Assembly: GCA_028279275.1 (NCBI GenBank)
Contig: JANQOB010000020.1
Location: forward strand, 1,890-65,889
DNA length: 64,000 nucleotides
Source of the DNA: Gammaproteobacteria bacterium
Lineage (GTDB): Bacteria; Pseudomonadota; Gammaproteobacteria; UBA4575
Direction of reading: 5' to 3'
Shown here one piece after another: positions 396-14,265 of the stretch; within the stretch, counting starts at the first letter, position 1; every line of letters begins with the position of its first letter. The position numbers were made by a program, and so were the translations under genes. A model generated the notes under the pieces. It did not search any database. It was given only the letters and a program-made list of their open reading frames with translations, and was not told the DNA's origin.

Positions 396-1171
396 ATATG
401 ACTAATGTAAATTTACATAAACAATTTGGTCTCTCAATTGTTGAATTGATGATCGCATTAGTATTGTCACTAGTCGTAATGTTAATCACGACAAGCATCT
501 ACGTCAGTAATAAACAAACATATCGATTTTTGGATCAATATAGTTTGCTACAAGAAAATGGACGCTTTGCAATATTCTTTTTACGTGAACATATATTGCA
601 GGCAGGTTTTCCACGCCAGTCAAATGTTGATCCGTTTCCTGTAGTGCCGGGCAACAATACGGGCACAAATGGAAGTGACACGATTACTGTGCAATTTAGA
701 TCTGCAGTAGATTGTTTAAATGATGTACCTGCTGGTGCATTACCTCTACGGCTTACACAAAATACTTTTCAACTTGGTGATTTAGACGCAGATGGAGTAA
801 TCGAATTGACATGCAATGGTAATGGGCTTGTTGGTGGCGTAGACCAACCTGCACAACCCCTAGTGGATGGCATTGTAAATCTACAGGCTGAATACGGTGT
901 AGACACCGATGCGGATGGAATTGCAAACACCTATGCAAATTCTGCTGTCGTGCAAGCAGGAACAATTGGTGGCGCTGGCCCGGATTGGAACAACGTTGTT
1001 TCTATGCGTGTTGCAGTACTTGTTGAAGGGGAGCCCAATACATTAGATCAAGCGCAGTCGATTACTTATAGCTTACTAGGTCAACCAGTAACTCCAGCTG
1101 CAGACCGTACTCCACGACGTGTTTTTACAACAACCATTCCTTTGCGTAATCGCAATAAAACAATTATTTAG
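392..1171 (+). CDS. pilW: Type IV minor pilin PilW
   Basis: Prepilin cleavage motif QFG/LSIVELMIAL, LQENGRFA motif, and C-terminal LVDGIVNLQAEYGVD...VVSMRVAVL...FTTTIPLRN. Confidence 0.9.
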   Translation: MNMTNVNLHKQFGLSIVELMIALVLSLVVMLITTSIYVSNKQTYRFLDQYSLLQENGRFAIFFLREHILQAGFPRQSNVDPFPVVPGNNTGTNGSDTITVQFRSAVDCLNDVPAGALPLRLTQNTFQLGDLDADGVIELTCNGNGLVGGVDQPAQPLVDGIVNLQAEYGVDTDADGIANTYANSAVVQAGTIGGAGPDWNNVVSMRVAVLVEGEPNTLDQAQSITYSLLGQPVTPAADRTPRRVFTTTIPLRNRNKTII

Positions 1172-1696
1172 GTGGCAATTATGATGAATTCAATTAGTAA
1201 TCAAAATGGTGTTGTATTAGTTGTTGGTTTGTTGATGTTGCTTGTTATTACGGTCGTAGGCGTAACGGCGATGAGTGATACAGCGATGAATGAAAGAATG
1301 ACCTCAAACCACCAATTTCAAACCTTAAGTTTTCAAGCAGCGGAATCAGCCATTCGTGATAATTTTGATATCGCCTCCGTCTCGCCTTCTGTTACAGCAG
1401 TGAATTGGTTTGTTGATCCAGCGCCTACAAATTATAACGTAGATATTCAAAGCGGTACTCCTCTGGGAGTACAAGCAGACGCAAGCATTCAATTTTGTGG
1501 AGAAGAATTACCTATAGGCTCAGGATTTTGCAATGGTCTCGCAGGAGGCTGTGATATTGATCAGGTTTTTGATGTAAGAGGTGAAGGACGAGTAAGTTCA
1601 CTCGGAACTCAAGAGCAACATATGCGTAGAGGAGCACGTGCCATGCTTAGTGCAGGATTAGCATTTGATACAACAAAATGTGATCAGGTGCCATAG
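1172..1696 (+). CDS. pilX: Type IV minor pilin PilX (start may be ATG 1181)
   Basis: QNG/VVLVVGLLMLLVIT lacking Glu5, plus the SFQAAESAI motif typical of the PilX N-terminus; operon position fits. Confidence 0.88.
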   Translation: MAIMMNSISNQNGVVLVVGLLMLLVITVVGVTAMSDTAMNERMTSNHQFQTLSFQAAESAIRDNFDIASVSPSVTAVNWFVDPAPTNYNVDIQSGTPLGVQADASIQFCGEELPIGSGFCNGLAGGCDIDQVFDVRGEGRVSSLGTQEQHMRRGARAMLSAGLAFDTTKCDQVP

Positions 1697-1742
1697 ATCA
1701 AAAAAAGGATTTTAAGGTTATTTTTTTAAAGAGAGCTAGATA

Positions 1743-4700
1743 ATGAGTATGTTAGTAAGAAAGTTACATGTTGTTCTGTTTGTAAGTCTGACAACATTTA
1801 TTGTAAGTAGCACACAAACATTTGCAGAAGATATAGAGATTTATAACAGTACGCAAAAAGTTCCAAACGTTCTTTTTATCATCGATTCTTCTGGAAGTAT
1901 GGATGATGATATTAACGGAGATGATCCGAGTTCTACGGGACTTCCATCGAAATGGAGTTTAGTCACTACTGCTTTAGATGGAATTTTGTCTGAAAGTTAT
2001 TCCAACTTAAATGTTGGGTTTATGAATTTTGCCGGTGATAATGGTCGAGGCGTTGATTTTCCAGTGGCTGATATTAACGGGTCTGCTAAATCTGTAGAGC
2101 CATCTGTTTCAGATCCTAATGAATCCTACTCAAGTTTGTTGCGACGATTCATCACTAATCTTCCCGCTCCTGATGATAGTACACCAATAACTCAGTCCTT
2201 GTATGAAGCGGCTCTCTACTATAGAGGTGAAAACGTTGATTATGGAGCACAAAACCCTGGAACCTGGAATGATGCAAATTCTGAATATACGGGAGCACAT
2301 GTAGAAGCTGCTGGGCCGCGCACTTATTCTGGCGGCACTTGGAACGGTTCGGGTTTTACGGGAACGCCAAGATACAACTCACCCATAGGCGTGTGTACGG
2401 AAAATTACATTGTACTTCTATCTGACGGTATACCGAGGAGACATGACGACGATGTAAAAGATTACATTAAAGAACTGTACGATCCAGATAAAAGCGATTG
2501 TAATGACATCTCGGATATTTTCTCAGATGATGATGATGTAGAAGATGGAGAATGCGCAGAGGATCTTACCTATTATTTGAAAAACTTTGATCAAAGTTCT
2601 ATTGCTGGTACCCAGACTGTTACAACTTATACTATCGGATTTGCTTTAGCTAACGATACTGAGACAAAAGAATATATGGAGAGTCTTGCAACGGCTGACC
2701 AAAATGGATTTTATGATGCAGGAAATAGTAGTCAGCTTGTGACCAGCTTTAAACAAATTGTAGACGATATTATTGAAAATCGACCAAGGGCAATGGCGAG
2801 AGTTGGTACGACATTTGATTTAACATCGCTTTCATCCAGTAGGGACGAAATATATGTACCTCTATTTAATGCAGAGCCTAACTTTCCACGTTGGCAAGGA
2901 AACTTAAAAGGTTATACTTTCGATGCTTCAGGAGAATTAAAAGGATTGAATGGTAATTCTGCTCTTGTAACCGATGCCAACGGTAATGTTGTCTTTAACG
3001 ATGCATCTACAAGTTACTGGTCTACAGCGCAAGATGGAGAAAGTGTAGCGCTTGGCGGTGTGGCGAGTCGTCTGAATGCAACGACAAGAAATGCTTTCAC
3101 GGACGATGGTCCGGGAACATCGCGAACATTACAGTCATTGGACACAGCAAACACGTCTTTAACTGGTAACCCCGCAATATTTGGTTTACCAGGTTCTACG
3201 CCTGCAGCGGATATACAAAAGCTGATCTCTTGGACACGCGGCTTTGATGTGTATGATGAGGACGGAGATCTCGATATCACCGAGCAACGCAACTTCATTG
3301 GTGACGCATTGCATACAGCCCCTATAGTTGCAAGCTATGACGGTAACGATACAGATTCGATGCTAACGGGTTCACCTGCTATTGAACGTGTTGCGTACTT
3401 CATGACAAACGAAGGGTTTTTACATGCGATCAACGTTACCGGTAATACTTCAAGCGACGGCGGCAACGAATTGTTTGCCTATATGCCAAGCGATCTGCTG
3501 GATAACTTAGTAACATTACAAAACAATGCAGTAGGCGGTTCAAAAGTATATGGATTAGATGGTCCACTAGTGCTATACCAAGTAGGTGGTCCTACCAATG
3601 TGGCCGGTGACAAATACCTGTATTTTGGTATGCGTCGCGGTGGTATGAATTACTATGCTATGAATGTAAGTAATCCTAACGCTCCCACATTAATGTGGAC
3701 CATTGAGGGCGGCAGCGGTGATTTTCAAGAACTTGCACAGACTTGGTCATCTCCGATCGTTACAAAAGTTATGTATGACGGAGCTGAAAGACTCGTATTA
3801 GTGCTCGGTGGTGGTTACGATACCATTCAAGATACGGCAACAGTACCTACACCAGATACTCAGGGTAGAGCAATCTATGTTGTGGATGCTGTTACAGGAC
3901 AGAAACTTTGGTCAGCGGGACCTAGTGGCAGTCCCGATACACATACATTAAATCTCTCACTTACAAATGGTATTGCCGGAGATGTTTCGGCTATCGATTT
4001 GGATAATGACAGCATTACAGACCGCTTATATTTTGGAGATTTGGGTGGTCATGTTTGGCGTATTGACTTTCAAGGAGACCTAAAAACGGGAACTGCGGGT
4101 TTAGCGAATGACTACTCCGGATATATGCTTGCAGACTTGCAAGGTAATGATGCGGCCAATACCCGGCGCTTCTTTTCCAGACCGGTTGCTGCGCGTACAG
4201 AAAACGGAAAACTAGCGGTCACAATTGGTTCTGGGCATCGCTCACACCCATTGGACTCAACCGTACAGAATCGCTTCTACACGATATACGATCCGAATAT
4301 CAGTGGCGTACCTACTACCGTGCCGAGTCCAATAACCGAGAGTGATTTACAGAATATCACTGATTTTACTACAGGGTATACGGACTCATCTAAAAGCGGA
4401 TGGAAAATCAATTTAGGTACGGGTGAAAAAATATTTAATGAAGCTTTAGTGTTACGTGGTGAAGTATTTTTCACAACCTATATTCCACCCGTTGTGCTTT
4501 GCGAAGATGTACCAAATGGATCACGCTTGTTCGCCGTTGATCTTGAGGGGAAAATTACAAGAAACTTGGATGGAGATATTACAAATGGTGATGAAGCCTA
4601 CGTTAATATTCTTAACTTTGGGATTCTTCCTAAGTTATCTCTGCATTATGGTGGTGCCGGACAAGTAAATGGAATTTTCCTGCCAAACTTTAAGAATATC

Positions 4701-5626: not shown

Positions 5627-6691
5627 ATGCAAGACATCATTCATATTGATATGGACGCATTTTATGCGGCGGTGGAGCAAAGAGATTTTCCACAATACCG
5701 TAACAAACCTGTGGTTGTCGGTGGTGATCCTGAAAAACGTGGTGTTGTGGCAACTTGTAGTTACGAAGCACGTAAGTTTGGTATCCATTCTGCTATGGCG
5801 TGCGCGCGTGCGCAGCGTTTATGTCCGAAAGCAATTTTTGTACGACCAAGATTTGAAGTATACCGACAAATATCGCAACAAATTCGCGACATCATGTTTA
5901 GCTACACTGATTTAGTTGAACCACTTTCTTTAGATGAAGCGTATTTAGATGTTACGCACTGTAAGCGTAGTTTTGGGTCACCTACATTGGTGGCTAAGGC
6001 AATTAAAAATGAAATATTCCAAACAACAGGACTCACGGCATCAGCAGGTGTTTCGTATAACAAATTTATTGCCAAAATTGCATCGGATATGGATAAACCC
6101 AATGGACTGACATTGATCACAGAGAAACAGGGCCCTGAGTTTGTAAAACAATTACCGATTGGAAAGTTTCATGGTATTGGGCCTGCAACAGAAACCAAAA
6201 TGCAAGATTTAGGAATTTACACTGGCGAAGATTTGCTTGCATGGAGTATTGATGAGTTGAAAGCGATTTTTGGCAAAGTGAGCGAATATTATTATTACGC
6301 GGCCCGAGGAGTTGACCGACGTGAAGTAATGAGTCATCGACAACGAAAGTCGATTGGTTCAGAACAAACATTTAGTGAAGATATAAAAGATGAGAAAGAA
6401 ATGTTAGCTAAGCTACAAGAGCTGGCAACTGAGGTATGGCAGGATATGCATACAAAAAATATATGTGGTCGAACCATTACCGTAAAAGTTAAGTTCGATA
6501 ATTTTGTTCAAGTTACCCGAGCCGCGACATTAGCGGGTAATATCAGCAGACTTGAAGATATTTCGGGTCAACTAGAAGAGTTACTCAATAAGGCCGAGGT
6601 TAGAGGCAGACATGTGCGCCTATTAGGAGTAGCAGTGTCTAAATTAACCACAAAGGAAGGTGTTGACGAAGAACAACTTACTCTCCTATAG
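5627..6691 (+). CDS. dinB: DNA polymerase IV
   Basis: IIHIDMDAFYAAVE, CSYEARKFG, SLDEAYLD, KIASDMDKPNG and VRLLGV motifs. Confidence 0.97.
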   Translation: MQDIIHIDMDAFYAAVEQRDFPQYRNKPVVVGGDPEKRGVVATCSYEARKFGIHSAMACARAQRLCPKAIFVRPRFEVYRQISQQIRDIMFSYTDLVEPLSLDEAYLDVTHCKRSFGSPTLVAKAIKNEIFQTTGLTASAGVSYNKFIAKIASDMDKPNGLTLITEKQGPEFVKQLPIGKFHGIGPATETKMQDLGIYTGEDLLAWSIDELKAIFGKVSEYYYYAARGVDRREVMSHRQRKSIGSEQTFSEDIKDEKEMLAKLQELATEVWQDMHTKNICGRTITVKVKFDNFVQVTRAATLAGNISRLEDISGQLEELLNKAEVRGRHVRLLGVAVSKLTTKEGVDEEQLTLL

Positions 6692-13522: not shown

Positions 13523-13747
13523 TTACGAAATATATTTATATTGATAAGAACAAAGAGTGACCTCCCCAAAATATACTATTGAAAATATAGTTTGGGGAAG
13601 CCACTCTTTTTTCATTTTTACTTTTTCTAAACGACGTTTAGACTTGTTACTTTTACGATGTACACCACCTTTGCTAAGCAGTGGATGATTATGCAAAAGA
13701 TTTCTATGCCGAGTAAATTTAACCGGCAGTTTAGTCTTGTCAGGCAT
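13523..13747 (-). CDS. Small basic protein; candidate ArfA-like alternative ribosome-rescue factor
   Basis: AGGAG SD. Residues 1-50 are strongly basic (RNLLHNHPLLSKGGVHRKSNKSKRR...KKEW), and the hydrophobic tail is encoded by a long hairpin. The CDS is well supported; the function is inferred. Confidence 0.65.
   Translation of the reverse strand: MPDKTKLPVKFTRHRNLLHNHPLLSKGGVHRKSNKSKRRLEKVKMKKEWLPQTIFSIVYFGEVTLCSYQYKYIS
13552..13609 (-). promoter_or_regulatory. Long intragenic mRNA hairpin (candidate RNase III or premature-termination site)
   Basis: mRNA AAAGAGUGGCUUCCCCAAA-C-UAUA / UAUA-U-UUUGGGGAGGUCACUCUUU forms 19 contiguous bp plus 4 bp. Two of the pairs are G:U and work only on the coding strand. 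Confidence 0.75.
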
Positions 13748-13782
13748 TGCAATTCTCCTAATTAGTATCTAATAATTAAAGT

Positions 13783-14013
13783 TCAAGCAGCTTCTTTCAG
13801 GAGCGTACCGTCCTGTATTGCCTGGCGAATATAATCCATAAAATACAGAGAATTTTTTTCCGCTACTAGCACCTCGTCACGCATAGTGTTAAGAGGAACT
13901 GGAAAGCTATACATCATTTCACTATAAGGAACAGTCACAGCATAGTACGCTATTCCATTTTGATAACGTAAAAATTTAGCCTTGTTGCTAATGCTTATGT
14001 CATTTGTGTTCAT
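13783..14013 (-). CDS. Small uncharacterised 'FPVP' protein, paralog 2, C-terminal -EAA
   Basis: GGAAGGTGG SD; AKFLRYQNGIAYY...YSFPVPL...YFMDYIRQAI; aligns with 14038-14265. Confidence 0.8.
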   Translation of the reverse strand: MNTNDISISNKAKFLRYQNGIAYYAVTVPYSEMMYSFPVPLNTMRDEVLVAEKNSLYFMDYIRQAIQDGTLLKEAA

Positions 14014-14037: not shown

Positions 14038-14265
14038 TTAAGCAGCTTCACTTTTTTCCAATTTCTCATCCAGTTTTTGGGCATGAGCCTTAATATAAGG
14101 ATAAAAGCGGTTAACCCGGTCTTCATTCAGAAAAACCGACTGACCTGAACCTTTAATAGGTACAGGAAACTTAAAGCCACTTTCTGTGCGGTACCATAGT
14201 TTTCCTGATAGGAAAAACATGAAGCGCACGCTCTCGTTGTTTTCAAGAATTTGATCAAGCTTCAT
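14038..14265 (-). CDS. Small uncharacterised 'FPVP' protein, paralog 1, C-terminal -EAA
   Basis: AAGGAG SD; VRFMFFLSGKLWYRTESGFKFPVPI...FLNED...FYPYIKAH. Confidence 0.85.
   Translation of the reverse strand: MKLDQILENNESVRFMFFLSGKLWYRTESGFKFPVPIKGSGQSVFLNEDRVNRFYPYIKAHAQKLDEKLEKSEAA

Follow-up and report, generated by a model that had tools for sequence, protein, structure and literature searches.

A mainly gammaproteobacterial family of small basic proteins with an RNA hairpin in frame at the end of the conserved coding part, a candidate counterpart of ArfA and BrfA

To our knowledge, only two ribosome-rescue factors are made from deliberately stop-less messages: BrfA and ArfA, the latter being alternative ribosome-rescue factor A (Pfam PF03889, YhdL in Escherichia coli). 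Each came to light through genetic work in a model organism; as far as we know, a homology search begun from either one does not see the other. In the published accounts, ArfA is translated from an mRNA without a stop codon, trans-translation represses it, and its partner in rescue is RF2, which it recruits (PMC6299226, PMC6881298). BrfA, the YqkK protein of Bacillus subtilis, is described as a release factor-dependent rescue factor with a rho-independent terminator inside its coding region, hence a stop-less mRNA, and a low cross-species compatibility of ArfA and BrfA is reported as well (PMC6881298). In ArfT of Francisella tularensis, KKGGSTNKK is named as the channel-binding stretch, and arfT is described as having neither an in-ORF terminator nor an RNase III site (PMC6299226); Burroughs and Aravind place ArfT within a broad family of charged helices (PMC6514570). 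In a further arrangement, PrfH-RtcB, a ribosome-rescue gene is paired with the RNA ligase gene rtcB (PMC9304027, PMC1586002).

Here we analyze a small gene from a gammaproteobacterial contig; the window is the whole stretch of DNA considered, 64,000 nucleotides in length. By analogy of gene design, we are inclined, with some reserve, to regard it as a sequence-unrelated functional analogue of ArfA and BrfA, made from a stop-less mRNA and gated by tmRNA. If so, this would be a third sequence-unrelated family of the same design, and the regulatory trick would be recognisable from sequence alone. The family would provide a candidate back-up rescue for many Gammaproteobacteria without ArfA and ArfB, and would supply the missing back-up in lineages like that of the host, where tmRNA is present but ArfA and ArfB are both lacking. 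Through RtcB, rescue on stop-less mRNA would moreover be connected with RNA repair, a link that is directly testable.

The gene and its in-frame hairpin

The ORF is a genuine gene (Table 1). Its first 49 codons comprise a variable N-terminus, a core R15-N16-x5-P22-L-L-x-K26-G27-G-x-H30 and a basic stretch leading to K47-E48-W49. Across the family the core is fuller, reading R15-N16-x5-P22-L-L-x-K26-G27-G-x-H30-x-K-x2-K-x2-R38 before the basic stretch to K-E-W49, and the columns of P22, K26, H30 and R38 are invariant in alignment A2, a profile of 40 diverse family members. Past W49 no consensus appears in any of the broad alignments (A1, A2, A3). A preliminary description of the locus had called residues 1-50 rich in K, R and H, and a count on the translation bears this out (11 K, 5 R and 4 H versus 3 acidic residues). 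In an AF2 model built from 148 sequences (mean pLDDT 78.9), a short helix is predicted at residues 22-25 and a long, basic one from residue 34 on. A complex prediction combining residues 1-52 (A2) with the genome's own RF2 (A5) scored 0.00 and is neutral on binding.

Table 1. Coordinates in the window of the gene, its parts and its hairpin
Feature	Positions	Strand	Description and basis
Whole ORF	13523..13747	minus	ATG start, 74 codons plus TAA stop; ORF list and homologues
Shine-Dalgarno AGGAG	13755..13759	minus	7 nt 5' of the ATG; read from sequence
Conserved coding part, codons 1-49	13601..13747	minus	Invariant or near-invariant columns in alignments A1, A2 and A3
Tail, codons 50-74 plus stop	13523..13600	minus	No protein-level conservation across the family; stop 22 nt past the hairpin
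In-frame RNA hairpin	13548..13613	minus	28 bp in all, with a 25-bp core at 13552-13609; RNAfold
5' arm of core hairpin	13584..13609	minus	Codons K47 to F55; RNAfold dot-bracket
Hairpin loop UUCAAU	13578..13583	minus	RNAfold
3' arm of core hairpin	13552..13577	minus	Codons I57 to L65/C66; RNAfold

On the mRNA strand, RNAfold places 19 + 6 pairs that span exactly the core interval, plus three outer pairs. The preliminary description had put a stem of about 23 bp there, starting at the KEWL codons: its span and its start stand, and its length has to be corrected to 25-28 bp. The surrounding 141 nt have a folding energy of -42.6 kcal/mol (z = -6.8), which none of 200 dinucleotide shuffles equals. 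Taken alone, the hairpin reaches -36.3 kcal/mol on the sense strand versus -24.3 on the antisense strand, 12 kcal/mol weaker, and it contains three G:U pairs formed on the mRNA strand only, as had been stated. Running from codon K47 to L65/C66, it encodes ...EWLPQTIFSIVYFGEVTL. The hydrophobic tail that had been ascribed to the hairpin is indeed encoded there; it is not, however, a conserved protein feature, and is whatever the hairpin happens to encode in this clade.

An Rfam search over the hairpin gave only sub-threshold matches at chance level, and in a simple terminator scan the hairpin was called on neither strand. Read on the plus strand, it has TTTTTTCATTTTT right after it, at 13610-13624, and so looks like a bidirectional terminator. 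This run and the hydrophobic tail PQTIFSIVYFGEVTL are what one would expect of a non-coding hairpin (a bidirectional terminator or a repeat) lying under a chance ORF, or of a membrane or toxin-like peptide. We rejected a plus-strand terminator: there is no plus-strand gene with its end in the vicinity, and the T-run, missing in GC-rich relatives, merely complements Lys-Met-Lys-Lys codons. The sense strand is favoured by the G:U pairs, nothing in Rfam exceeds its threshold, and over the 47 loci conservation is strong in the first 49 residues whereas the tail is not conserved. These explanations, already disfavoured, strike us as barely credible.

Family extent, hairpin conservation and stop-codon placement

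A word-indexed search returned 33 homologous proteins, none of them with a Pfam domain and the few named ones labelled 'hypothetical protein'. Scanning one genome per species with a pattern yielded 78 matches, from which 41 loci were confirmed; these sit in MAGs labelled Gammaproteobacteria, Thiotrichales, Methylococcales, Chromatiales, Thiodiazotropha, Competibacteraceae, Thiohalomonas, Nevskiales, Acidihalobacter and similar. At E<=1e-3 the A2 profile matched the representatives of 1,239 clusters (50% identity), and at E<=1e-10 it still matched 255. Of 401 genomes sampled evenly across the class, 28 had a family match; in a sample of the phylum this was so for 4 of 301, one of them outside the class. 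The family is a large, unannotated and mainly gammaproteobacterial set of small basic proteins.

The family is nameless in Pfam, in NCBIfam and in the source annotations, where its members are 'hypothetical protein'. The window protein matched no Pfam family at E<=10 and no NCBIfam family, and ten distant relatives, including proteins of a sister subgroup described below, were without a match in either collection. In a protein atlas all nearest clusters were again 'hypothetical protein'; one DUF7230 cluster, at a score of 0.82, is a lead only, and kinship with DUF7230, unconfirmed by Pfam, was not retained. Profile searches of the PDB gave bL32c as best match for alignment A1 (E = 1.1) and no chain at E<=10 for A3. 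A full-text literature search found no paper describing the family. One protein of 367 aa (P0117) carries the family core at its N-terminus, then about 300 further residues; it may be a true fusion, or else gene calling may have read through the putative stop-less design, and it was left out of alignment A3.

Conservation of the hairpin was analyzed over 47 loci: the window, the 41 loci of the pattern scan and five more that were close hits in the class sample. In 45 of them a hairpin of 12 bp or longer begins 19-29 (mostly 25-26) codons after the invariant proline; at the two remaining loci (L017 and L041) there is no hairpin at the site. Folding energies were compared with 40 mononucleotide shuffles per locus. 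The 78-nt segment that begins 24 codons past the invariant proline has z<-3 in 38/47 loci (median -5.55), versus 3/47 (median -0.66) for the 78 nt just upstream. Hairpin arms are wholly different between clades, the 5' arm reading for instance GAGUGGCUUCCCCAAA, GCGUGGUUUUCUCUGAG, GAGUGGGAUUACCCGAGCC or GAGCGGGGUCAGCAC. RNAalifold run on all 47 sequences gives 19 consensus pairs, 18 of which show compensatory changes. Cells of the alignment are paired in 90.4% of cases; the corresponding figures are 68.2% for shuffles and 43-53% after sliding the partner. Double-change cells number 218 versus 65. The covariation score, 0.671 versus 0.262, was matched by none of 500 shuffles.

The hairpin belongs to the family and not to this genome alone. 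It had been proposed as a check that conservation among homologues should stop near W49 while the hairpin persists, and this is what we observe: protein conservation ends at W49, and the hairpin starts at the same codon in 45/47 loci, with compensatory changes. Since the hairpin covaries, the apparent protein conservation LPQNIF..V.FGE in the clade of the window is best read as the two arms of a stem.

Of the 47 loci, 30 have their stop codon past the hairpin, 8 within its 3' arm, 6 inside the loop or overlapping it, and 1 within the 5' arm; none of the 45 hairpin loci has it ahead of the hairpin. Where the stop falls within the hairpin (15/45), full-length messages would terminate normally. 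A T-rich tail (at least 5 T in 8 nt) follows the hairpin in only 4/45 loci, so that most of these hairpins are not classical terminators and truncation would need a nuclease. Long, near-perfect stems of 20-30 bp are the substrates of RNase III, and the hairpin would most plausibly be cut by this enzyme.

A different device is found in a sister subgroup, recovered among the weaker profile hits of the class sample. Its core reads RNPVAxSPLLRKGGAHxKS..., after which the protein turns acidic and has a spot rich in Phe. In 7 of the 14 loci examined (L065, L067, L068, L069, L073, L075 and L077), a GC-rich stem is followed directly by a U-rich Phe-Phe or Phe-Leu codon pair inside the ORF, the tract being UUUUUU in L065, L067, L068 and L069. 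The stop codon comes 3 to about 70 codons beyond the stem and U-tract. The 'FF' conserved in the protein corresponds to the codons of the U-tract. Stem and U-tract make up a predicted intrinsic terminator inside the reading frame, the same design as in the published description of brfA (PMC6881298). BrfA itself belongs to another phylum and seems to have another sequence. The clade of the window also differs from brfA in that its hairpin is a long, near-perfect stem of 20-30 bp, mostly without a U-tract, and not a terminator.

That two distinct devices both lead to stop-less messages points to selection for such messages. The feature that characterizes the ArfA/BrfA type of design, a hairpin or terminator in frame at the end of the conserved protein, is present, with no stop ahead of the hairpin. 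An arfA-style gene design had been recognised at the outset, and it holds throughout the comparison: the conserved protein ends where the conserved hairpin begins, and the stop lies inside or beyond the hairpin. The stop-less-message design is, in our view, well supported by this comparative evidence, and the gene is probably expressed from truncated messages.

The same observations bear on a plainer explanation, in which the product would be an ordinary small basic RNA- or ribosome-binding protein, for instance a helper in RNA repair of the RtcB type or a ribosome ligand of the stress or hibernation kind, and the hairpin a 3'-end stabiliser or terminator overlapping a very short gene, with no tmRNA gating. 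A normal short product is possible where the stop lies inside the hairpin, and neither Pfam, hhalign nor PDB profile searches reveal homology to any rescue factor. The explanation also draws on two aspects of genomic context detailed below, since linkage to rtcB fits RNA repair as well as rescue and ArfB co-occurs with the family at background rate. Against it stand the placement of the stop, never ahead of the hairpin and beyond it in 30 of 45 loci, and the tails past W49, which show no conservation at the protein level. The sister subgroup has complete intrinsic terminators within its ORFs, intolerable for an ordinary gene, and the convergence of two devices is, as said, suggestive of selection for stop-less messages. 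We consider this explanation unlikely, while giving it real weight.

Comparison with ArfA and ArfT

The likeness to ArfA is one of design. Both proteins are small and basic, of about 50-75 codons, and have an xLLHxPL[FL]-like hydrophobic motif followed by a K/R-rich stretch. Both genes carry a hairpin in the 3' coding region, with a disposable, non-conserved tail and a stop beyond, and in both a conserved Trp marks the start of the hairpin (WEAS in ArfA, KEW in the family). The family differs in having KGG-x-H in place of KGKGSY, a longer basic stretch from the glycine motif to the Trp, one clade linked to rtcB, and no significant similarity to ArfA at the sequence or profile level.

This last point was established in several ways. 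PF03889 (gathering score 25.5 bits) has no match to the window protein at E<=10. Over the whole genome it produced only a 12.6-bit match, on another contig, and none at the locus, and it is absent among the families listed (25 of 28) for 148 family members. For profile comparison we assembled a real ArfA alignment (A4) of 30 sequences: 5 ORFs from PF03889-positive genomes and 25 Pseudomonas-type homologues picked among the matches listed (120 of 470), all with PF03889. As a positive control, A4 searched against the PDB finds six ArfA chains (6e-16 to 5e-14), while the family profiles A1 and A3 find no ArfA chain there. Aligned to A4 with hhalign, the family obtains probabilities of 0.8% (A2), 0.3% (A3) and 0.4% (A7, the sister subgroup), with P-values of 0.07-0.18, so that homology to ArfA is not established. 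KGKGSY is invariant in 30/30 ArfA sequences; the window protein has KGGVH, and the family consensus is KGG-x-H. We thus rejected membership in PF03889 on HMM match, on profile-profile similarity and on the KGKGSY motif.

These results agree with the caution of the preliminary description that similarity was too low to name the gene arfA. The ArfA motifs it quoted are present in the real ArfA ORFs we fetched (LLHDKLF and KGKGSY in L053), but their equivalence to LLHNHPLL and KGGVH finds no statistical support. Its broader reading of an ArfA-like rescue factor divides in the same manner: the arfA/brfA gene design is upheld, by the W49 boundary and the hairpin in 45/47 loci, and sequence kinship to ArfA is not.

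Might the family nonetheless be truly, if very distantly, homologous to ArfA, a member of the PF03889 superfamily in which the stretch from PLF to KGKGSY has been remodelled? All three hhalign runs, though not significant, fall in the same, proposed register, with LHxHPLLxK on LvaqPLFRs and the family P-L-L on the ArfA P-L-F, and the similar size and the shared Trp at the hairpin start would fit. Some members of both groups also end in LAA or AAA. The hhalign values just given, the lack of an HMM match in either direction and the loss in the family of a motif that is invariant in ArfA all speak against it, and we regard such a homology as improbable.

C-terminal ends are worth a separate remark. 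Nearly all full-length Pseudomonas-type ArfA ORFs in A4 end in -LAA or -MAA, and one in -LAG. Several family members have -AAA, -LAA or -DLAA ends (L023, L025, L033, L035, L039, L040, L042 and L071). Such ends resemble that of the host tmRNA tag (ANDDNYALAA) and possibly constitute a built-in degron for read-through products.

ArfT provides another comparison, by motif description: both it and the family are small and basic with a KKGG-type motif in the part believed to lie in the mRNA channel, and SKGGVHRKSNKSK in the core of the window protein resembles KKGGSTNKK of ArfT about as well as KGKGS (PMC6299226). One may therefore envisage a relative of ArfT, or of KGG-motif helices at large, acting on ribosomes from an ordinary stop-terminated mRNA. 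The broad charged-helix family to which ArfT is assigned (PMC6514570) and the predicted long basic helix of the window protein go in this direction. However, no KGG family is found among those listed (25 of 28) for the 148 members, nor does the window protein have any Pfam match at E<=10. Moreover, the in-ORF hairpin that defines the family sets it apart from arfT, which is described as having no in-ORF terminator or RNase III site (PMC6299226). A relationship of this kind seems quite remote.

Proposed mechanism and genomic setting

We infer a rescue function from the analogy to ArfA and BrfA, of which alone the same design is known; that the mRNA is truncated, that tmRNA gates the product, and that this product binds the ribosome and recruits a release factor is likewise inferred. 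On the reading that we favour, a tmRNA-gated analogue of these factors, the hairpin would be cut, most plausibly by RNase III, or would end transcription, and most messages would thereby be left without a stop codon. While tmRNA-SmpB is active, the nascent peptide would be tagged and degraded. Upon saturation of trans-translation, a peptide of about 47-60 residues would accumulate. Its basic C-terminal helix would enter the vacant mRNA channel of ribosomes that have stalled on messages lacking a stop codon, and its conserved N-terminal core would recruit a class-I release factor, freeing the stalled peptide.

The host assembly, 94.7% complete, has tmRNA, SmpB, RNase III, RF1 and RF2; ArfA, ArfB and RtcB were searched for in it and not found. 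A genus-mate (G150, 100% complete) has the family and no match to ArfA or ArfB. At the scale of the class sample, there is no anticorrelation with ArfB, which is present in 14/28 family-positive genomes versus 177/372 others, a tally that includes four genomes flagged unpublished (G039, G141, G296 and G308), all ArfB-positive and none family-positive. ArfA occurs in 5/400 sampled genomes and in 0/28 family-positive ones, an absence that is uninformative because ArfA is too rare in the sample. In genus g113, one of two species (G111 and G291) has PF03889 ArfA only and the other a family match only, possibly a single case of ArfA replacement. On contig C39 of genome G135, an ArfB gene and a gene of the sister subgroup (1179-1586 and 5950-6054) lie 4.4 kb apart on the same strand.

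In 8 of the 41 loci (L021, L024, L025, L029, L030, L031, L036 and L038; about 700-3200 in each), the gene comes directly after rtcB (PF01139, E = 4e-129) on the same strand. These loci form a three-gene module on one strand, an unannotated protein, rtcB and the small hairpin gene, in this order. The protein ahead of rtcB measures 315-316 aa in five loci and 336-387 aa in three, and has no Pfam or NCBIfam match. In PrfH-RtcB (PMC9304027, PMC1586002), a rescue gene likewise stands beside rtcB, as the candidate rescue gene does here. PrfH, however, is a release-factor homologue with a catalytic domain, whereas the family protein is far too small to be a release factor and would thus have to recruit RF1 or RF2; the host genome, with no rtcB match, departs from the PrfH-RtcB setting as well. 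Taken together over the family, a wider reading is that of a further, independently evolved and release factor-dependent rescue family of over a thousand 50%-identity clusters, mostly from Gammaproteobacteria and gated by stop-less mRNA, in which an RNase III-type hairpin and an in-ORF terminator would be interchangeable and one clade would be wired to RtcB; this we put forward tentatively, with doubt and belief close to balanced and doubt a little the stronger.

In the window, two small minus-strand ORFs lie directly upstream of the gene, at 13783-14013 (76 aa) and 14038-14265 (75 aa), the nearer one 35 nt away. They have no significant match in Pfam or NCBIfam, the sole hit being a sub-threshold Phage_holin_T (E = 0.04) for the 75-aa ORF. 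The two, each with -EAA as its C-terminus, are weak mutual paralogues (27% identity, pairwise E = 1e-4). Counting the window with the 41 confirmed loci, they are kept upstream of the gene in 11/42 and 19/42 loci, respectively, and may be co-transcribed with it.
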